IMG/VR virus record: IMGVR_UViG_3300046314_000711
Source of the DNA: a virus
Strand: one strand, 5' to 3'
Length of the DNA stretch: 64,000 bases
A program made the position numbers and the translations under genes. The number at the start of each line of letters is the position of its first letter. Within the stretch, counting starts at the first letter, position 1. The notes beneath the pieces are model-generated. The model did not search any database. It was not told the origin of the DNA and saw only the letters and a list, made by a program, of their open reading frames with translations. Positions 2,990 through 47,821 of the stretch are shown one piece after another.

Positions 2990-5134
2990 ATGACAACCCC
3001 AGTCCAATTTGGTGGTCGTGACGCGCGTGTATATCAGGTACTAGCTCGCAATGAGGTATTGCAAGCACTCAAAGATGGTCACAGTCGAATCTGTGTTGTG
3101 TTACCGACAGGTTGCCATGCAGTTGATACGAAAATTTTAATGTATGACGGGTCAATCAAAGCTGTGCAGGATGTTGTAGTGGGTGATAGATTGATGGGCC
3201 CTGACAATCAGCCTCGTAATGTATTGCAGTTGGCTCGAGGTACTGAGCAGATGTATGATATCGTACCTAAGTCTGGTGACGTGTTTAGAGTCAATGGTGG
3301 TCACGTACTTTCGCTAAAAACCGTTAATGAAGGTACGAGTAAATGGCGACAAAGCCCTTGTTTTTTAACAGGAACTGAAGTTGTTAATGTTACTGTTACT
3401 GATTATTTGAGGTGGTCTACTGACAAAAAACGATTGCATAAAGCATATCTAGCTAACAAATTAGAATTTACTGAACAAAATCATAAAATCCCAGCATATT
3501 TAATGGGAGTATACCTCGGGGATGGAAGTAGTCGCTCGGGTGTTAGCATTACTACCATGGATGCTGAAATTGCAACAGAGTTGACAACATTTAATGATCT
3601 ACACAAACTCCGCACGATAAAACGTGAAATGCATACTCCAAATAAAGCGTCTGTGTATTTCCCTGCTGGTACAGGTCGTGTGGGAGATAATCTTTGGAGG
3701 AATGAGCTTAAACAGTTAAGCTTATTTGGGGTCACTTCTCATCATAAATTCATTCCACCTGTTTACAAAATTGGTAGTGTAGAACAGCGCTTGCAGTTGC
3801 TTGCTGGACTGATTGATACAGACGGTTCTGTCTCAAAAAACACAGTAGAGTATACAACAGTTAGCAAACAACTAGCGCAAGATGTGCAATTTGTGGCTCG
3901 TAGTTTGGGCTTTCGGTGCAATATTAAAGTATATGCTCGTAAGAATAATTACATATGCTACACAATGCATATATCAGGTGCGGGTCAAGAACTCATCCCC
4001 ACTCGATTAGCGAGGAAACAATTAACTGCACGAGCACAGCGTAAGGATGTTCTTAAAACGAGTTTTGAGGTCGTGCCTGTAGGTATTGAACAATATTATG
4101 GGTTTACTGTTGATGGGGATAATCTCTATGTTATGGGAAATTTTTTCGTAACCCACAATAGCGGTAAAACACTTACCGCTGGTATTATCATGGTCGCATC
4201 CGAATTACGTACCATTCTTGGTATTCCAGTTGGTCAACCTCTCCGCGTCCTAATGATTGCTCATAGGCATCGTTTACTGAAGCAAGCTGAAGACTCATAC
4301 AGCGCTGCAGGCATTACCGTGATCAAAGACCACAAAAATACGCCATTTCAAGTGGGGTTCACAGGTACTTGCGACAGTGTTGTCGTGTTTAATACACTAT
4401 CTACGTTCAGTGACGTACCAAAGGATCTCTGTTGGGATATTGCCATTTTGGATGAGTGTCATCACGAGAGTTGCCTGACATTTCAATATAAGCTAGAGCA
4501 AATTAGCGCCAAACCGATCATTGGTCTTACAGCAACTCCGTTGAGAGCGGATGGAGTATTGTGCAAATTCTCGAAATTCGTCGAAACGATCTCTCGTGAA
4601 GACGCTGTCGCAGCTGGTTACCTTGCGGATAGTCACCTATATTCATTCATTGACTCCCCAGCCCGTGAGCACGTTGACATGGTGATGGATATCATCAACC
4701 TCAAACAAAGTGTGCTCGGTCAGACGATGGTATTCGTCCGCACAAAGCAGGAAGCGATTGACGTCACCTCTCGTCTCGAAAAGCTGGGACTGACAGCAGT
4801 TGCTCTTGTCAATATCAAGGAAAAAACACTGAACGAAGAACTGGCTAATTTCGAAAAAGGTGCAGTGCAGTTTGTAGTGTCATGCAATAAAATTGGTGAA
4901 GGTACAGATGTCAAGGGTTGTGAGAGTGTGATTATTGGGCGTACTACACAAAGCTTGCCACTGCTATCGCAAGTTATTGGACGCTCGGCACGGAATGATT
5001 GCGAATCTCACATCTATGAGATTATTAACCCACTATCCAACAGCAACATTACAGCTAGTGATATACTGAAGCCGCAGCTGCATGAAATCTGGTACAAAGT
5101 TCGCCAACAGTGGCGTCACCACACTGTTGTTTGA
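2990..5134 (+). CDS. SF2 (DEAD/DEAH-like) helicase containing an intein
   Basis: Walker A LPTG|SGKT split by the intein, DECHH, GLTATP, QVIGRSAR. Confidence 0.9.
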   Translation: MTTPVQFGGRDARVYQVLARNEVLQALKDGHSRICVVLPTGCHAVDTKILMYDGSIKAVQDVVVGDRLMGPDNQPRNVLQLARGTEQMYDIVPKSGDVFRVNGGHVLSLKTVNEGTSKWRQSPCFLTGTEVVNVTVTDYLRWSTDKKRLHKAYLANKLEFTEQNHKIPAYLMGVYLGDGSSRSGVSITTMDAEIATELTTFNDLHKLRTIKREMHTPNKASVYFPAGTGRVGDNLWRNELKQLSLFGVTSHHKFIPPVYKIGSVEQRLQLLAGLIDTDGSVSKNTVEYTTVSKQLAQDVQFVARSLGFRCNIKVYARKNNYICYTMHISGAGQELIPTRLARKQLTARAQRKDVLKTSFEVVPVGIEQYYGFTVDGDNLYVMGNFFVTHNSGKTLTAGIIMVASELRTILGIPVGQPLRVLMIAHRHRLLKQAEDSYSAAGITVIKDHKNTPFQVGFTGTCDSVVVFNTLSTFSDVPKDLCWDIAILDECHHESCLTFQYKLEQISAKPIIGLTATPLRADGVLCKFSKFVETISREDAVAAGYLADSHLYSFIDSPAREHVDMVMDIINLKQSVLGQTMVFVRTKQEAIDVTSRLEKLGLTAVALVNIKEKTLNEELANFEKGAVQFVVSCNKIGEGTDVKGCESVIIGRTTQSLPLLSQVIGRSARNDCESHIYEIINPLSNSNITASDILKPQLHEIWYKVRQQWRHHTVV
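3113..4159 (+). mobile_element. Intein with LAGLIDADG homing endonuclease (349 aa)
   Basis: Starts CHAVDT, ends VTHN followed by Ser; LMGVYLGDG and LAGLIDTDG motifs. Confidence 0.93.
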
Positions 5135-5165
5135 CCCCAACCAACATTTCTAATATAGTACTCGC

Positions 5166-6197
5166 ATGATTTCAAACAAACACTTCCCTATCCTCGACTT
5201 AGTTAAATTTGAGTACGCCCATGTAACTCACATTTCACAGGCTAACATAGACTGTACTATTACTTTGGTTCGTGATGGTGAAGCAGTGAAGTACCCACTA
5301 CCATCTAGCATTTCGTATCGTCTGCGTAAATCAATCGGCAAAGTGGCGAGGTTTGCCACTCCTCACCCAATCTGCGTAGCTTGGGTGGGTGCTCGCATTG
5401 TATGTGCTGAGTGTCCTGATAAAAACGCTCTACTATCTGCTCGCAAGAACCAGTGGAAGAGTCTGATCGAAATTAATGTCACAGCATTTAAACCCCCAAC
5501 AGATGCTTACTTCGATGGTCAATACGTCTACGCGCTAGATGCTGGGCCAGAAGTATTTGATCGTAACTACGGTGTGGTTAAGTTAAGCGCTTGTTTTGAT
5601 TTGTACCACTTAAATGATATCGCATGGACAAATCCAGCACGTGCTTGCTTTGCTTACAAGAACGGACACAATTGGGTCGCTACTGCCCCTTGTACATCAG
5701 CTGCTGGTAGTTTTTTGCAGTTAGTGGTAGATGATGTCAGTGCTAGTACAGCTGCTGTATTTGACTCAATGGCTATGATTGATGCAATTCGCTTTGTCAA
5801 TCTACGCTTTGTTAATTACGCAGCAGGTCGATTAGCTGATGCGTTCGACTTTGAGGCAATTGAGCCGCTAGGTCTGCCGTTACTGATGATTGAGCACGGT
5901 ACATTCAATCTCGGGGAATTAACTCCAACAGTGCAGATGACTTGTCCTGCGCCATTGACATTCTCACAAACACTGGCTTGGTTAATTGGATTGCACCAAC
6001 GTGTGACTACGCTCGATCAGTTCATTACATTGAAAGAAGCAATTAGAATGCTATTGTCTAAAGGTTGCACCCGCAGCGCTGCGGTAATTGGGGAGGGTGA
6101 GGAACTAGCTGACGGTGCTGTAGATCTATCGAAGAATGAGGTTGTGTATTCTGCTCGCAAACAGTTCAACGGTATGGCGGTAGTTCAGTTCGTATAA
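5166..6197 (+). CDS. Hypothetical protein
   Basis: 343-aa ORF, no recognised motif. Confidence 0.75.
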   Translation: MISNKHFPILDLVKFEYAHVTHISQANIDCTITLVRDGEAVKYPLPSSISYRLRKSIGKVARFATPHPICVAWVGARIVCAECPDKNALLSARKNQWKSLIEINVTAFKPPTDAYFDGQYVYALDAGPEVFDRNYGVVKLSACFDLYHLNDIAWTNPARACFAYKNGHNWVATAPCTSAAGSFLQLVVDDVSASTAAVFDSMAMIDAIRFVNLRFVNYAAGRLADAFDFEAIEPLGLPLLMIEHGTFNLGELTPTVQMTCPAPLTFSQTLAWLIGLHQRVTTLDQFITLKEAIRMLLSKGCTRSAAVIGEGEELADGAVDLSKNEVVYSARKQFNGMAVVQFV

Positions 6198-28526: not shown

Positions 28527-29861
28527 ATGATGAGATTTATTGACTATTTAATTGAAGCGTCTTCCGGCGTGGATATGTGGGACAAGTACTACAAGGGTCG
28601 TCGGGTAATGACGACTATCAAACCGAAGGGGGCACAGTTATATGACGCTAATACCAATAAAGCAATCCCAGGAAAAAAACTGAGCGGTGGACACGAAGTG
28701 CTAGTTATTGGTGAGTATCCATTGCTACCAACACCGTCTCCAGCAGATATGGCACCTGGTTCGCGGTATGATTTGCGTGTTGGAGCTACTGATCCAGCAA
28801 ATGCTGCGTCAAAAGCATACCAACAGCGCAGCACTCCAGGTAATGACCCAAGTTTCGTTGACGTTGAATACAGTACTCGCACTAAAATTGCAGTGTACGA
28901 TGATGGTCACCAAAGCGTGTATCTTGTAAGCGTTAGTGATATTGCTAAGCCACTTCAAAAGAAGTTGTTTGTGTCACTAAAGCCTCAGAAAGTTTTAGCA
29001 GGCCGAGGTAAAGTTGAAAACGGATTCGCTGTGTTCCCTACATTGACTGCGTATAAGACAGAGTTGATCGCTGGAATTGAACAGTGTTCTGATCTGTCTA
29101 AGGAAGTTAAAGCATATTTAACGACATTGGTGATCGATGGAAGGAATGCAAGTGCTGTTCAACCAACGTATGACCAAACAGGAATTTCGAATAGCGTGCC
29201 ATCATACAATGCGCTAAACAATGATTTCTTGGAGATGATTGGCCCATTTGTAGTTGGAAAGAGTGGAAAGGTAGAAATTCCATTACGCGACAATGAGGCT
29301 ATGATTGATTTTAAAGTTGGTGGGGTAGGTTTTTCTTCAAAGCGTGCAGCCACAGTAGCAAATACACTAAAGTGTGGTGATGTGATTAAAGCACTTGGAG
29401 GACAAAAACTCAATCAGATGGAATTTTCATATCAACTCATGTCAACTCTTGCAACTGCTACTGTAAAGCAAGCACCAGCCGAACTGACAAACTTATTTAA
29501 TAGTAGTAAGTTCGCTTCGGAAATTGCTCAATTTGCTAGCGAACGAGTGTTCAAAAACAAGCGATCCACATGGCTTCCAGCAAAATCTGACTGGTCAATT
29601 GAAGATAACTACAACATGCAGATGACTACTATTGAGAAGTTCGTTAACCAGTGTGTCGCTCAAGGTTCTATAAATTTTGACAAATACGTCAATGAAGCAT
29701 TAATGGATGTGGGCGTAGTAAAAATGCAAATTAATCCACGCACTGGTGCATTGGATAAAATCGCGGTAACCCAACCTGGTTCAATGACTGCTTCTAAAGT
29801 TGGAATCCGGCACAAGGGTCGTGGATTCAAAGGCGGTGAACGTATGGGGTTTGTTCTGTAG
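28527..29861 (+). CDS. Hypothetical late protein
   Basis: TAAATA upstream; MRFIDYLIEA N-terminus. Confidence 0.7.
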   Translation: MMRFIDYLIEASSGVDMWDKYYKGRRVMTTIKPKGAQLYDANTNKAIPGKKLSGGHEVLVIGEYPLLPTPSPADMAPGSRYDLRVGATDPANAASKAYQQRSTPGNDPSFVDVEYSTRTKIAVYDDGHQSVYLVSVSDIAKPLQKKLFVSLKPQKVLAGRGKVENGFAVFPTLTAYKTELIAGIEQCSDLSKEVKAYLTTLVIDGRNASAVQPTYDQTGISNSVPSYNALNNDFLEMIGPFVVGKSGKVEIPLRDNEAMIDFKVGGVGFSSKRAATVANTLKCGDVIKALGGQKLNQMEFSYQLMSTLATATVKQAPAELTNLFNSSKFASEIAQFASERVFKNKRSTWLPAKSDWSIEDNYNMQMTTIEKFVNQCVAQGSINFDKYVNEALMDVGVVKMQINPRTGALDKIAVTQPGSMTASKVGIRHKGRGFKGGERMGFVL

Positions 29862-30060
29862 TGCTAACTTATCCTGAACTTGCTGCACTAGGCTTTTGTC
29901 CAGTGAAGAACTACGGGTGGATGAAAGCTTTCCCTCGGGGCTTCCGTCTTCCGCTATCCTGCCCAGCAGATCTATACAAAAGGCTCCCGCTGCAGATCCA
30001 GATTTTCTACGACTCTCCTATCGTTGATGGTAAGCGAGCATTAAAACGCCAACTAACCTG

Positions 30061-30830
30061 TTGACCTAAACTCAAACTGGCGATATAATGCTCCCTGTGT
30101 CTGGGAAATATCGCTGGTAAATAAAAGACTTGTAAATATTTTCAAATATCTGTTGACTTTAATAGAAAACGGTATATAATAGACCCTAATGCAGTGATCG
30201 AGCTGCTAAACAGAGTTCTTTAAAAAGTTGCTTGTTAGCGTCGTAATCTGGGATACCATGCTCGCCTGGTAAGAGTGTGAGGTAGTGGTCGCCAGCCACA
30301 ATAGATGAGGTTCGACTCCTCCACGACGCTAATAAGCAACTTTTTAAAAGATTCTGTTGACCTTAAAAGATTTTAGGGGATAATAGACGTACAGATAGTG
30401 ATCGCACTACTAATAATAGAGTTCTTTAAAAAGTTAGTTTGTTGTGCTGAAAGGTCCACCCACTGTCTTGTGGGGAGAAGGTAATAAGAAAGTTATCAGA
30501 TCCGTTTGATAGCAGAAATAACTTTAACAAACGAAACTTTTTAAAAGATTCTGTTGACCCTAGCCAAAATTGGGGTATAATGGAGACTAAGCAGTGATCG
30601 AGCTGCTTGATAGAGTTCTTTAAAAAGTTAGTGAAACCGCTGTTCATAGTGACGCCAGCTGAGATGCTGGGTAGCGCCAAAAAAGAACGAACAGTGGGAT
30701 GACTTGGATCATACCAAGCGTATCACAAAACTTTTTAAAAGATTCTGTTGACACATACTGAAAAGTGTGTGATAATAGACCCTAAGGCAGTTAAGACTGA
30801 TCACAGTAAACTGCAAAGTTCATTAAAAAT
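30061..30830 (+). repeat. Tandem array (about 200-nt period) of promoter / hairpin / boxA / cargo-RNA units
   Basis: TTGAC at 30061, 30153, 30357, 30554, 30748 with (T/G)ATAAT 16-17 nt later; GTTCTTTAAAAA at 30215, 30421, 30615; AACTTTTTAAAAGATTCTGTTGAC three times. Confidence 0.85.
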
Positions 30831-31174
30831 CTAAAGTTACGAAACAGTAGGATTAGTAGTGTCCATCTGATAATGAGTGGCAAATGGTTCGAAGTGCACC
30901 ACCCGCGCAGTAATTGCCAGGGGAAGTGAATACGGGAAGCCATACGGGAAGTGTAAGTCAGTCCAGATACTTGTAAATGCAGGAGGTCTAAAGACCTGAG
31001 CGACCGCAGCAATGTGGGAGAGATACTGGGACCGTTTGAAGCCTTTAGTGTAATAACACATTCGTAACTAATAGATTTTGTTCTTTAATAATTTACCGAG
31101 TGATATTCCTCTACATCGACTTCACAGTCCAATGTCGGGAGACAGCTGGTGGTTTAACCGCCCGGTTGGAGGAG

Positions 31175-31408
31175 TCATATTCAAATATCGAGTAAGCGAG
31201 GAGTGCAACCCAACTGAAGACGGCCACTGCATAGCCGAGCCGGACGCGGTATTTGAATATGATTATCTATGCGACGATAGTGACTAGGGCGCTTCGGGGT
31301 CTTCGACAATAGCATAGAATCATATTCAAATATCGAGTAAGCGAGGAGTGCAACCCAACTGAAGACGGCCACTGCATAGCCGAGCCGGACGCGGTATTTG
31401 AATATGAT
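31175..31408 (+). repeat. 89-nt direct repeat (31175-31263 = 31320-31408); the spacer unit recurs near 32060-32141
   Basis: Identical sequence blocks read directly. Confidence 0.9.
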
Positions 31409-32260
31409 AAAGGTGAATGGGTTAGGTATGTCACTGCCATAAGAACGCGGCATGCTGAGTTGGTTCAATTCCAACAACTTTTGTTCAATATGAATCCATG
31501 TGACAATAGCGCGCAACGATAGCATGGAATCATATCAAAGGATAATCGCAGGTAATGGCAAGTTGGTAGGCCATCCAGTTAATTCTGGCGCTGTAGTCGG
31601 AGGTTCGAATCCTTCTTATTCTTTGATATGATCGATGAGTGTTCGAGTAGCCGTGATGTTACTCACAGGGCAAGTAATCATCGTATGACATCTCGGAAAG
31701 ACGGGCTTCATATTTAAGTACTCCTTATAGGATCGTGCATTGGTAGTTCAAGCAGGGGAAGTTTGTAGTACTTAAATATGGTAAGTCGGTTGTTTGTGGG
31801 TCATAGAGAATTGCAGTAAGTTGGTTTAGCGACCTTCTGAAGATTCTCAACCGGGGCTGCTACTCCAAAGGTAGATACTGGGACTCGGAATCTCAGATAC
31901 AAACAACAATTCATAGCAAAGGATGTTGCAACATTCTAGCGAGGTCGCAGGCAGTAATACAGCCCCTTCCGTTCGATTCGGAGTTATGGATGACTTGGCA
32001 TATTCAAATATCGTAGGTGATGATAGTACGCTGGTTACGGTGAACTTCCCTGATCTGAACGGTATTTGAATATGATTATCTATGCGACGATAGTGACTAG
32101 GGCGCTTCGGGGTCTTCGACAATAGCATAGAATCATATTCATCCACAAGTCTCTTGCAACGGGGATTACAACAGGGGAATTAACCCTAAACGTGTTGCAG
32201 CGTTGACCTCTGGTAAGGAGGTATAGCTTGAATTAACAGGGTGGATGAATATGATACTTT

Positions 32261-32343
32261 GGAGAAGGAAAGCTGATGGCTTCAGCACCGAGTCTGTAAA
32301 ACTCGTCCTTCGGGGAGAGGGTCGGAACCTCACTTCTCCACCA
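32261..32343 (+). tRNA. tRNA-Tyr(GUA), atypical
   Basis: GGAGAAG/CTTCTCC, CGAGT-CTGTAAA-ACTCG, T-loop GTCGGAA, ACCA. Confidence 0.75.
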
Positions 32344-32544
32344 AGTTATGACGCAACGTGAACAGCAAAGTTCTTAATGTCATGTGCAATGGCGATAGTA
32401 GAGACTATCCAACGGGTGGTGAGTACGCTCCACATCATGTATTACTAGAAATAGTTTTCACATGTAGTAAAAGTTATGTTATAATTACTACATGTGAAAT
32501 TGGTCTAATTAACCAAAATTACAATCGAGAGTAATTAACTCGAT

Positions 32545-32674
32545 GACCCTTGCATAGTTTATTCGGCAAAACGTAAGAAATGTTGGTTCGATTCCAACCT
32601 ATGAACTCTGTTCGTAGTCGTCTAATGGCTAAGACGCAGGAGAGGGTGGTTCGAAGCCACCTGCAAATAGGGTC
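32545..32674 (+). ncRNA. Nested double-tRNA-like RNA
   Basis: Outer D- and T-arms surround an inner T-arm, closed acceptor-like hairpin and D-arm. Confidence 0.7.
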
Positions 32675-32784
32675 GCAAATTTGTCAGTAAAGAGAGTAAT
32701 TCTGAGTTCTGCAGGACTTGCATTAGGTAGTGATACCCGCGCCGCGATGCTGGCGGATAGAATTACTCTCTTTAGTGATTGATT

Positions 32785-32879
32785 ACAAATTAAAGTGTAT
32801 TTTATAGGTTCGATTCCTAAAGGGCGACGGTCGATAATTTCAAAGTTACTCTAAGTGGTTTAAGTACACTTTAATTTGT
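32785..32879 (+). ncRNA. Y-RNA-like (permuted tRNA) element
   Basis: 16-bp terminal stem enclosing T-arm TAGG-TTCGATT-CCTA and then D-loop-like TAAGTGGTTTAAG. Confidence 0.55.
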
Positions 32880-33188
32880 TAGTCAGTAGGTAGGCTTAGG
32901 AGCAGCCACCCTTTAATAAGTGAGACGAAGGCACGTTGAAACATTGTAATCTGGTGTAGGGCAGCAATCCAGATGAAAGCACAATAGGATTTTTGGTAAT
33001 GTTAGATAACAAACTCAAAAGGTTTGCTGACCCAAAAATCACAGTACGGTAACTTCGCTAGTTACTAAAGCAATGGGATAGCTTCCCTGAGTGCGAGTTT
33101 CGCGTGAGCCACTTGGTTAAGTACAGAGGCACCCCAGAAATGGTAAGGCTGACGTTCTCTTTGGCGTAATAGCAAGCTAACTAACAAA
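32875..33188 (+). ncRNA. RNA containing a 23S rRNA H43/H44 (L11-binding) mimic
   Basis: GGTAGGCTTAGGAGCAGCCACCCTTTAA (32889-32916) and GCGTAATAGC (33164-33173) inside a closing stem. Confidence 0.75.
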
Positions 33189-33858
33189 AATATGATAAAT
33201 AGTCTATTCTAAATATGGGTACTCAAAATATCCGTTCTTAGAGGGTGCAAATCCCTAGATACCTCGGGTTACCGACTGTTGAAGCGGAGTGCTAGGTAAA
33301 AACAGGGTAGACTTATCATATTCAAGTTTTATTTTGTATGGCTCGCAAAATTCGAGACTCCCAGCAGATAGAACTTGAATATGATAATGTTCGAAAGTTA
33401 TCATAACGGAAGATGAGCAAACTCGAGTAAAACTCATCAAGGCACACTTTGGTGAAGTTTAAACGACTTCCAATGCTGAACCACTATACCACTGACTGGA
33501 GGATATCCGCGCCGGAGTCGTCCTTCGGTTGTATAGTTGAATACATTGAAAGAATTGGTCAAGCCCAGTCAAGCCCAGTCAAGTTGTAGTTTATTGAAGA
33601 ACACCAATGTATTCAACTATGCTATAAATTGCGGGGATGAAAATGGAAATGTCGTTCGCCATTATAGAAAACACCTCTGCCTAAGCTGTAAATAGATGGT
33701 CTGGACCCCATCGGCATGCTTTGAGTGTCCACTGATAAATAAGGTTTTGCTGGTAAGAATACGTCGTAAAAGTGATTTTACAGAATTTAGAAATTTATTC
33801 TGGTTGTCAATAAAAATCTCTATCCTCCAAAGCAGGGCCAGCAAATTTATAATTTAAC

Positions 33859-33991
33859 GCGGTTGATGGCTAACTAAATTATTTCAACTCCGGATGAGAA
33901 GTAACGAGGTATCTTAGCTGTTAATAGTCTAACTTGTGATTGAATGTACAATAAATCACGAGTCGGGGTGCAAATCCTCTCAGCCGTACCA
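33859..33991 (+). ncRNA. Enlarged tRNA-like RNA ending ACCA
   Basis: GCGGTTG/CAGCCGT acceptor, GGGG-TGCAAAT-CCTC T-arm, expanded D and anticodon regions. Confidence 0.5.
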
Positions 33992-34213
33992 ATATTCCCC
34001 CTATAGCCTGACGCAAGGGAGCCAAGAGCATGATGCAGTCGCGCTGCACGCCTCAGAGCATGAGAATGATGTTCCTTTCCGGTGCAAGCAGTCCGGTCCA
34101 ATTTTGCGATGCAGACGCGCAGCCTCTCCATTTCACGGAACAAAAGCTCGCAGGGTAGTTAGATAGTTCTGCACCGTTGGGAAAAGACCCCTTAGGCCCA
34201 ACACCAGATAAAT

Positions 34214-34316
34214 GCGCTTGTAATTCAGTGGTTAGAAGGTCACCCAGCTATGATGGCACGATACGCCGTAAAAGCACTGGCTCTGTTGGACGTGGGTTCG
34301 AATCCCACCAAGCGCG
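34214..34316 (+). tRNA. tRNA-like RNA with extended anticodon arm (identity unclear)
   Basis: GCGCTTG/CAAGCGC, canonical D and T arms, about 50-nt anticodon region. Confidence 0.65.
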
Positions 34317-34596
34317 CTATATTGAAACACACTGGCGATTCTCGTATGAGGGTCGTTATTTGGTGCACAAGTGTAACAGTGTGTTTCAATATGGTATAGT
34401 GTAATGAGAATGCACGGGAGCGCCACATAAATCTCTTTGACTAGAGTGGTGGAACAAGTTTCAAGTACGGTAAAACCCCGTAAGCCATATTTAAACGTAC
34501 TGATGAGCTGATGCAATTTCAGCGAAACTGTTGGGGAGCCATTACAATGATTTGCTCTTGTAAAAATATCCAACAGTATACGTAGAGGATAAGCGA

Positions 34597-35106
34597 ATGA
34601 AGTTGTCTGACATTTTATGCAGTGTCCACATCGTGGAGGCGCTAACGACCCGAGTTCCTATCACATGGGAACAATCTACCCCAGCTACTATTACTGGCAC
34701 TGGTGTCATTGATGGTGTAATAATAACACTAACGATATCGTCCCTAGTGTACAGTGGGTACAATGGTTGTAATCTAGCATTTGCTACTGATAAAGATGGT
34801 GAACCTGTTGAGGTGTTCCGAAACGAATTTGGGCAAAGTGCATCTAAAATTATTGGTGCTGTTGTTAATGGATTCAATGAGAAATTGACTGATTTTAACT
34901 TCGACTTTTTGTGTCTTGCAGCCAAAGACAACGTTGATAAGCGAGCTTCGCTTTATCTAATGATAGCTGAACGATTTGCACGTAGTCGGCAGATGCATGC
35001 TAGAACTGTTGCATACGGAGAAAACAAAGTTGTTATTATGATTAACCACGACCTTCCTCTCGATTTGATTAAAAAACTAGAACAACAAGGTAGTAGTGTT
35101 GATTAA
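34597..35106 (+). CDS. Hypothetical protein, paralog family A
   Basis: GAGGA RBS; KIIGAVVN...FDF...AKD..R..LY...ERFAR shared with 45156 and 49064. Confidence 0.75.
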   Translation: MKLSDILCSVHIVEALTTRVPITWEQSTPATITGTGVIDGVIITLTISSLVYSGYNGCNLAFATDKDGEPVEVFRNEFGQSASKIIGAVVNGFNEKLTDFNFDFLCLAAKDNVDKRASLYLMIAERFARSRQMHARTVAYGENKVVIMINHDLPLDLIKKLEQQGSSVD

Positions 35107-35166
35107 ATATGGTGTGCCACTGGCAGTGATGAGTGAATTAAAAAATAATCTCAAGTAACGCATTTA

Positions 35167-35241
35167 GCATTCGAGGTGTTAATAGATACATTCTTCGCTT
35201 CCACCGAAGAGTTCCCGGCGCGATACCGGGCGAATGCTCCA
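35167..35241 (+). tRNA. tRNA-Gly(UCC)
   Basis: GCATTCG/CGAATGC, CTTCG-CTTCCAC-CGAAG, U73-CCA, T-loop CGCGATA. Confidence 0.82.
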
Positions 35242-47713: not shown

Positions 47714-47821
47714 GGGACTCTAGCATAATTGGTAGTGCTGGGAACTCTTACGGAGCATCTGCACAAGCGGGTGTTCAAAATAATTCCTAAGGCCTCGGTT
47801 CGAACCCGGGGGGTCCCACCA
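47714..47821 (+). tRNA. tRNA (Ile/Met, CAU if spliced) with 32-nt hairpin insert in the anticodon
   Basis: GGGAA-CT-C-[47748-47779]-AT-AA-TTCCT; intact D, T and acceptor; ACCA. Confidence 0.75.

Follow-up and report, generated by a model that had tools for sequence, protein, structure and literature searches.

The element and its locus

The window analysed here, a stretch of 64 kb, is part of a 109.8-kb IMG/VR virus record (IMGVR_UViG_3300046314_000711, estimated to be 32% complete) that represents an uncultured freshwater giant phage. Positions 32875-33188 of its plus strand hold an element of 314 nucleotides (nt), which is a self-closed copy of helices H43 and H44 of 23S ribosomal RNA (rRNA; E. 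coli positions 1051-1108). The halves of the copy are split by a 238-nt insert, and the two ends together fold as the piece of 23S rRNA to which the ribosomal protein uL11 binds, the GTPase-associated centre (GAC). The element sits in a 4.7-kb stretch (29861-34597) that is poor in open reading frames (ORFs), with none of at least 120 amino acids, and dense in sigma-70-like promoters, stem-clamped RNA cassettes and tRNA-like pieces. All 16 tRNAs of the window are on the plus strand, the same as the element, and no ORF of at least 120 amino acids was found within 1.4 kb downstream of it. About 390 nt upstream lies a sigma-70-like promoter on the plus strand (32457-32485; TTCACA, 17 nt, TG-n-TATAAT), which is identified by consensus only (11 of 12 matches) and is a candidate start of the element-carrying transcript; no plus-strand terminator-like site was found between this promoter and the element. 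The best explanation of the element is that it is a gene for a stable non-coding RNA (ncRNA).

In the E. coli numbering used throughout, the closing stem P1 corresponds to the top of H42. Its 5' strand TTTGTTAGTCAG (32875-32886; E. coli 1044-1055) pairs with the 3' strand CTAACTAACAAA (33177-33188; the equivalent of E. coli 1104-1115) over 12 bp with one C.A mismatch, continuing outwards from the G1055-C1104 pair. The H43 mimic (A1057-U1081) occupies 32888-32912 and has the loop UUAGGAGCA, with A1067 at 32898 and C1072 at 32903. Within it, the 16-mer GGCTTAGGAGCAGCCA (as RNA, GGCUUAGGAGCAGCCA), which comprises H43 loop and stem at 32893-32908, is identical to GGCTTAGRAGCAGCCA; the expected number of chance sites is 0.03 per window even if two mismatches are allowed. 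The junction segment U1082-U1090 (32913-32921) reads UUAAUAAGU and is a subtype variant (U1086, A1087) of the family consensus UUAAAGAGU, present also in two related loci, L038 and L063. The insert (32922-33159) enters between 1090 and 1091 and is closed by the stem Pins, in which GAGACG (32922-32927) faces CGTTCTC (33153-33159). It is followed by a UUUG linker to H44 (33160-33163), an instance of the UUUR that is specific to the phage family and not found in rRNA, and by the H44 mimic G1091-C1100 (33164-33173), GCGUAAUAGC, also listed as GCGTAATAGC, with A1095 at 33168. The segment A1101-C1104 (AAGC, 33174-33177) comes after H44 and carries A1101 (33174) where rRNA has U1101. Both hairpins are present with the loops that are conserved in rRNA, and so are the three-way junction, the turn at 1082-1086, C1072, C1092 and G1099 of the tertiary base triple, U1060 and A1088. 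The window subtype deviates from the GAC fold at U1086, A1087.A1102 and U1056.G1103, and two of these three deviations are shared with L038 (in full) and L063 (in part).

A previous sequence-only reading of the window had described both rRNA motifs, the closing stem and the inner GAGACG/CGTTCTC stem, with about 240 nt of extra hairpins between the motifs. All of these sequence observations are confirmed here, and the E. coli 23S sequence that it gave agrees with a genuine rRNA copy, locus L075. It had also pointed out that no other rRNA sequence flanks the match, and we come to the same result. At gathering thresholds Rfam detected tRNAs only in the 64 kb, and at E ≤ 10 the sole rRNA match in the window was a stretch of 25 nt (LSU_rRNA_archaea 1184-1208) that coincides with the H43 mimic and scores 17 bits, the gathering score being 50. 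This implies that the element is not part of an rRNA gene. The contiguity of rRNA is likewise missing: the halves are 238 nt apart, whereas real rRNA has no more than 5 nt from the UUUAA junction motif to the start of the H44 loop motif (GCGUAA) (L075, and 111 of the 120 genome matches listed). Neither at gathering thresholds nor at E ≤ 10 did the element match an Rfam leader, and Rfam searches with the insert alone and with the second copy of the element in the window (see below) gave nothing beyond a chance Vault match (E 2.2). The folding z-score of the whole element was -1.6 on the plus strand and -2.5 on the minus strand, which means that thermodynamics alone shows neither structure nor strand; these are shown by covariation and synteny.

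The phage RNA family and its comparison with 23S rRNA

A scan of IMG/VR with the H43 string followed by UUUAA gave 90 loci. One of them, L075, is real rRNA, and the remaining 89 have the H43 string, then AGAGU, a variable insert and, further on, GCGUAAYAGC. A second scan in which the H43 loop was left free added members with variant loops, and a narrow gapped pattern scan (11 loci) added little. After removal of duplicates the family set comprised 86 distinct full IMG/VR elements with inserts of 23-334 nt, all built on one plan: P1, the 1056.1103 opposition (G.A or A.A), H43, UUUAAAGAGU, Pins, insert, UUUR, H44, ACAC and the returning strand of P1. Since the two motifs, the closing stem and the position of the insert recur jointly in these 86 elements, the match in the window is not due to chance; the sequence-only reading had named a failure of the two motifs to be conserved together as grounds for its own rejection. 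In P1, every Watson-Crick type occurs at each of nine pairs (1047-1055 with 1104-1112), and the share of canonical pairs is 79-100%, depending on the position. Pair 1058:1080 occurs as GC (35), UA (28), AU (20), CG (2) and GU (1), with no mismatch, and the first three pairs of Pins, again of all Watson-Crick types, are canonical in 86, 86 and 83 of the 86 elements. The linker is nearly invariant (U in 85/86, 84/86 and 84/86, then G in 68 or A in 18).

The covariance model R1 was built from a seed alignment of 22 phage sequences from which the window element was excluded, and it recovered the window element over the full model length, on the plus strand only, with 86.5 bits and an E value of 3.5e-24. 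In the seed alignment 95.9% of cells pair, compared with 70.1% in shuffles, and the covariation score was 0.69 against 0.175 in shuffled alignments; none of 500 shuffles reached 0.69, and the score dropped to 0.11-0.20 when the pairing partners were slid by 1-3 columns. The model also found members of the family in cultured phages, namely in P. putida phage pf16, between tRNA-Asn and tRNA-Pro (E 4.4e-35), in Aeromonas phage 4_4572 (E 4.6e-28) and in Cronobacter phage GAP32 (E 9.7e-26). The GenBank records of the cultured phages have no annotation at the corresponding place or show a "hypothetical protein" across it. Of the 86 family elements, 58 lie within 500 nt of a tRNA or transfer-messenger RNA (tmRNA) gene, often at a distance of 3-17 nt. 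The tRNA genes within 3 kb of the elements (4.3 per element on average) are all on the strand of the element, which fixes the coding strand.

Three derived characters that rRNA lacks are common to the whole family, including a second subfamily called type B. These are the UUUR linker, the site of the insert and A1101, a base able to pair with U1090. They point to a single origin. Members with gammaproteobacterial hosts carry GAGU and not the E. coli-type GAAA, which, together with the shared derived characters, indicates that the family has not been re-captured from hosts. Judged by these sequence characters, the phage RNA family is monophyletic. We found no description of such an RNA in Rfam 15 or in a full-text literature search that included ncRNA-discovery preprints of 2026, and the family is apparently undescribed. 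In a scan of bacterial and archaeal genomes the 120 matches listed comprised 111 real rRNAs, 4 rRNA variants and 5 chance matches; because real rRNA dominates, the scan tells little about stand-alone copies in cellular genomes. Among the matches listed, the junction AAAGAGU proved to be a natural form of rRNA in many phyla.

To compare the family with its model position by position, we set the 86 phage elements against real 23S sequences, 80 in number and all distinct. Retained in the phage RNAs are U1060, G1071, C1072, A1073, A1077, C1079, U1081-A1085 and A1088, and U1060, G1071, A1073, A1077, C1079 and A1088 are invariant in the family. The odd oppositions are those of rRNA, with U1060 facing U or C1078 and 1056.1103 being G.A or A.A. 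The triple 1072/(1092-1099) is C/C-G in 85 of the 86 elements, which are of type A, and U/U-A in all 12 type B members whose 3' half was located, and the lone pair 1082:1086 is seen as U/A, A/U and C/G. Covariation at these sites supports the same tertiary structure as that of the rRNA GAC. In the crystal structure the C-terminal domain of L11 contacts 1058-1060, 1062-1065, 1075-1083 and 1088 (PMC1802607). Every nucleotide of this interface shows in the phage family the conservation or covariation that it has in rRNA, and the entry point of the insert is not among them.

Beyond the 1055:1104 pair the likeness stops. A1048, C1049, A1050 and A1111 are each present in 80 of the 80 rRNAs and C1109 in 78, and in the phage RNAs these positions form free Watson-Crick pairs. 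H42 is therefore unconstrained there, and the copy ends at the 58-nt uL11 domain. The conserved H42 nucleotides at about 1043-1050 and 1109-1112 are what we take to be the uL10 site, so that the part of the sequence-only reading that had the RNA bind uL10/L12 as well is not borne out: where H42 does not vary in rRNA, the phage RNAs have Watson-Crick pairs of free composition.

The other face of the domain is copied with less strictness. A1067, A1095 and A1096 are each found in 80 of the 80 real rRNAs. In the phage family A1067 is A in 39, G in 5 and U in 1 of the 45 elements sampled with the loop not fixed; among all 86, position 1095 is A in 79, G in 3, C in 2 and U in 2, position 1096 is A in 67, G in 18 and U in 1, and position 1097 is U in 38, C in 38 and A in 10. 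Substitutions at A1067 and A1095 were never observed together, with 0.7 co-occurrences expected. The three adenines make no tertiary contacts, and A1095 contacts cofactors (PMC6239185). The absence of tertiary contacts together with the incomplete conservation suggests that selection on the face that meets factors and thiostrepton is relaxed, not absent. Position 1061 is U in 79 of the 80 rRNAs as against U in 42, A in 23, G in 16 and C in 5 of the phage elements. The isolated GAC domain retains one fold whether it is free, together with L11 or in the ribosome, and A1061 raises its stability in Mg2+ (PMC6239185); a position 1061 that is free to change thus fits a free-standing RNA.

The element is also present in RNA libraries. 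In three freshwater metatranscriptome assemblies from three studies (X19, X20 and X21), contigs fall on the element: a 1468-nt contig with a depth of 305 on 32908-33999 in X19, for which differences at the same depth are listed from 32608, one on 33048-33197 in X20, and two, on 32823-32980 and 32951-33038, in X21. Between them the contigs span the element, as the sequence-only reading had expected of a transcript. The type B copy is covered exactly, at 30825-31071, by a contig of X20, and the depth of X19 there is the maximum of the block, while the adjoining coding stretch 34325-35200 has a depth of 0-6 in the same runs. The very high depth at 32877-33057 is partly made up of cross-mapped real rRNA and other members of the family (loose end AGAAAGCGTAA) and was not used as evidence, and neither were uncovered stretches.

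Possible function and rival explanations

The proposal of a stand-alone, self-closed ncRNA that mimics the uL11-binding GAC and carries a large inserted domain is supported by these results. As to how it might act, the element would be transcribed together with the tRNA block and then freed by tRNA-type processing; the neighbourhood of tRNA genes suggests release by tRNA-processing enzymes. The RNA would fold alone into the GAC fold and would bind host uL11 through the protein's C-terminal domain, off the ribosome. The resulting RNA-uL11 particle could be a sponge or an imitation of the base of the ribosomal stalk, and during infection it could alter the activity of free or exchangeable uL11 or of the readers of the uL11-RNA surface. 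A candidate purpose would be to blunt uL11-dependent RelA activation as the phage floods the cell with tRNAs. A gene for uL11 was found neither in this record nor in four carrier phages of 358-408 kb that are 99-100% complete, so the partner must be the host protein. A homolog of bL12 occurs in one of five carrier records (G004:C1:284586-284783, 78 bits, in L300, a complete phage of 395 kb), which leaves no consistent phage-encoded partner. We put the probability that uL11 binding is the core of the function of the element at about 50%.

Several points weigh against this reading. Despite their lack of tertiary contacts, A1067 (39/45) and A1095 (79/86) are far more conserved than neutral positions, and this residual conservation indicates that the fold and the uL11 C-domain are probably not all that counts in most members; the uL11 N-domain, a factor or a ligand could be involved. 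The surface of the domain could be altered by the invariant UUUR linker and by the insertion into the H44 strand, and uL11 in assembled ribosomes may not be titratable. Moreover, the RNA contigs are assemblies that show presence in libraries but no ends, strand or level, and they could stem from DNA carry-over. A further-reaching form of the reading holds that the mimic, co-expressed with the phage tRNAs, and host uL11 make an off-ribosome stalk-base particle that, by drawing exchangeable uL11 or the readers of its RNA-bound surface off the ribosomes, would disable uL11-dependent alarms such as RelA activation or a GAC-directed defence. This would be a counter-defence made of RNA only, in which the two versions of the triple in one phage would address two partners or conditions. 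We consider it possible but rather doubtful.

Alternatively, the RNA could be a decoy substrate which, with or without uL11, would soak up a weapon of the host or of a competitor that modifies or cuts the GAC, thereby sparing the ribosomes that the phage needs. A natural toxin with such a target is Tre23, which ADP-ribosylates 23S rRNA within 1095-1098 of H44 and blocks the GTPase activity of EF-G (PMC8661411). The H44 loop G-U-A-A-Y-A is kept in most members, and the element sits in phage tRNA arrays. Such arrays are widely viewed as countermeasures to tRNA-directed defences. However, the literature searched gave no anti-phage defence system directed at the GAC, and an RNA decoy that acts stoichiometrically has tens of thousands of ribosomes to compete with and must prevail over them. 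It is also odd for a substrate mimic that 1095-1097 is the most variable part of the loop (A1095 in 79/86, A1096 in 67/86). Conservation at A1067 and A1095 is partly relaxed, which speaks against pure mimicry of a substrate or of a factor-binding site alike, and we regard the decoy as unlikely.

Factors or tRNAs could also be the target, if the RNA-uL11 surface imitated the docking site for translational GTPases (EF-G, the EF-Tu ternary complex, RF3, IF2), RelA-bound tRNA or tRNA elbows and acted as a sponge for them. The element lies together with tRNA genes, A1067 is in contact with the elbow of tRNA in the A/T state, and isolated oligonucleotides of the thiostrepton domain reportedly bind EF-G, a finding attributed to Munishkin and Wool (1997). 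Here the 87-92% conservation of A1067 and A1095, bases without tertiary contacts (PMC6239185), would find a reason. Yet these two bases, present in 80 of 80 rRNAs, are replaced by any base in 16 of the 86 phage elements. The factor site has a second half, the sarcin-ricin loop, which is absent here, and the similarity of AGUACAGAGG in the insert is not conserved in homologs. Sequestering elongation factors would, in addition, harm the translation of the phage itself, and a sponge of this kind seems improbable to us.

If the inserted domain were the functional part, the GAC fold would be a structural cap, serving as a stable, nuclease-resistant clamp or as a processing signal. The inserts are diverse, about a quarter of them contain a conserved module with covariation, and neighbouring RNA cassettes of the window are likewise clamped by long stems. 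But the insert is only 23-43 nt long in some members, so that the core is the common denominator, and a generic clamp needs neither near-identity at the uL11 contacts nor the base triple, both of which are kept across at least 100 elements; we hold this explanation to be quite unlikely. That the element is an inert relic, a functionless fragment captured from a host 23S rRNA gene or a chance likeness, would account for loop sequences that are the same as in rRNA, but the covariation data already contradict it, with compensatory changes in every helix and in the tertiary triple. Further points against it are the derived A1101, UUUR linker and 1090/1091 insert that the members share and rRNA does not have, GAGU in place of the E. 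coli-type GAAA in members with gammaproteobacterial hosts, and the presence of the element in RNA libraries.

We return to uL11 binding and to how the phage RNA relates to known systems. With the bacterial 23S GAC, the 58-nt domain of uL11 and thiostrepton, it has in common the secondary structure, the invariant nucleotides, the 1056.1103 and 1060.1078 oppositions, the covariation of the 1072/(1092-1099) triple, the lone pair 1082:1086 and the contacts of the uL11 C-domain. Unlike the 23S GAC, the phage RNA is encoded among phage tRNA genes, has a variable closing stem of its own and an insert of 23-334 nt at 1090/1091 followed by UUUR, carries A1101 for U1101, leaves 1061 free, does not keep A1067, A1095 and A1096 invariant, and does not copy the H42 nucleotides. 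The autoregulatory leaders of ribosomal protein operons (the L10 leader RF00557; the L1 and S15 operators) are off-ribosome imitations of an rRNA site as well. They are, however, cis-acting 5' untranslated regions of their own operon and usually have few nucleotides in common with rRNA, whereas the phage RNA has no ribosomal protein gene downstream, is self-closed, sits in tRNA arrays and is near-identical to rRNA. YrlA and Y RNAs (PMC4201824) are, like the phage RNA, small structured copies of a translation module that are often phage-borne and near tRNA genes, but they copy tRNA and have Ro60 as a partner, whereas the phage RNA copies rRNA and its proposed partner is a ribosomal protein. In pseudo-ToxI of phage phiTE (PMC3475682), as would be the case here, a host protein is captured by a phage RNA made in the likeness of a host RNA; what pseudo-ToxI copies is an antitoxin repeat, and both its target and its effect have been proven, while the copy of ribosomal RNA studied here has a target that we infer.

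If the reading is right, the element would be the first stand-alone trans-acting copy of an rRNA domain known in a virus. Ribosomal RNA would then join the translation parts that phages have borrowed (tRNAs, tmRNA and a few ribosomal proteins), and uL11 with the stalk base would be a battleground during infection. The family is a natural mutational scan of one of the best-studied RNA tertiary folds, with its triple switches, its variation at 1061 and its tolerated insertion point. It also provides a natural scaffold that is compact and can accommodate as many as 334 nt of insert. The reading is directly testable; members are unannotated in cultured phages with tractable hosts, such as the Pseudomonas putida phage pf16. 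New in this study are the positional comparison of rRNA and phage RNAs, the module in the insert, the paralog of type B in this genome, the switch of the triple between orthologs and the evidence from RNA libraries.

Insert module, second copy and neighbouring RNA cassettes

The inserts of the family range from bare hairpins of 23-43 nt (L135, L130, L012 and L015) to 334 nt, and the existence of the former makes the GAC core the common functional denominator. In 22 elements including that of the window, about a quarter of the family, the insert ends in an accessory module that we call class M. It consists of AAGUR, N4, a three-pair stem, an internal loop ACC/UAAG and a hairpin CC-N-(GNRA or UAAC)-N-GG; AGU, ACCCC and GGUAAGG are invariant in the 22 members, and the middle pair of the stem is Watson-Crick in all of them (GC in 14, UA in 6, AU in 1, CG in 1). 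In the window the module lies at 33119-33152 on the plus strand and is made up of AAGUA, N4, the stem GGC (33128-33130) with GCU (33148-33150), the loop ACC/UAAG and the hairpin CCAGAAAUGG (33134-33143). It is also present in Aeromonas phage 4_4572 (L325) and P. putida phage pf16 (L324), and neither the module nor the insert matched an Rfam family. The "extra hairpins" noted between the two motifs in the sequence-only reading thus stand as a large insert but not as arbitrary filler, since a conserved module makes up its 3' portion. A tandem G.A beside the stem hints at a K-turn or k-junction in class M, which is plausible but which we do not claim. A likeness of AAGUACAGAGGCACC in the window to AGUACGAGAGGACC of the sarcin-ricin loop was set aside, as homologs keep just AGUR...G.CACC.

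The second copy of the element in the window, type B (30833-31071, plus strand), scores 54.9 bits with R1 (E 7e-15) and has the H43 sequence GGAUUAGUAGUGUCC and the H44 sequence GUGUAAUAAC. It carries the triple as U1072/(U1092-A1099) and has A1064-U1074; the A-U pair 1057-1081 is replaced by C1057-G1081, and U/A at 1082/1086 by A1082/U1086. The copy lies directly behind a strong promoter-like site (30748-30776) and belongs to the fourth promoter cassette of the RNA block. A separate scan with the H43 sequence GGAUUAGNAGUGUCC found the type B subfamily in 22 other IMG/VR loci. In a related contig of 15.8 kb (L305), a type B and a type A copy (2699-2895 and 4759-5056) are kept as a pair about 2 kb apart, as in the window. 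Between the window element (C/C-G) and its ortholog in L305 (U/U-A) the triple is switched while the rest of H43 and the architecture of the insert are common to both, so that the switch, which is also seen in type B, happened at least twice. The type A copy of L305 has, besides the switched triple, lost one nucleotide in the 1082-1086 turn. The lone type A exception among the 86 elements, L033, combines C1072 with a U1092-A1099 pair and may be an intermediate in the switch. In another locus (L027) two family members stand in tandem, at 5122-5364 and 5439-5710, with 17 tRNA genes within 3 kb.

The surroundings of the element in the window consist of similar small RNA units. A 14-bp stem (32777-32790 with 32866-32879; CAAATTAAAGTGTA/TACACTTTAATTTG) clamps a cassette of 75 nt in which there is the T-arm-like GGTTCGATTCC. 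The 3' strand of the stem shares bases with the beginning of P1, which means that adjoining cassettes may compete for pairing. The contig of a close strain in X19 skips a 110-nt stem-loop cassette (32676-32785) and replaces 33628-33744 with 139 other letters, which indicates that RNA cassettes are gained, lost and swapped between strains. Near-identical hairpin cassettes are duplicated within the block (31178-31260 with 31322-31408, and 31258-31320 with 32073-32140). A Hammerhead_3 match at 34479-34533 (18 bits, E 5.8; CUGAUGAG...CGAAAC), in which GAAAC can be paired by eye with an upstream GUUUC, is probably no ribozyme. Two Rfam tRNA matches of about 103-105 nt, at 34214-34316 and 47714-47818, were not called by ARAGORN; the former has an insertion of about 41 nt in the anticodon region, and both are probably intron-bearing tRNA genes.

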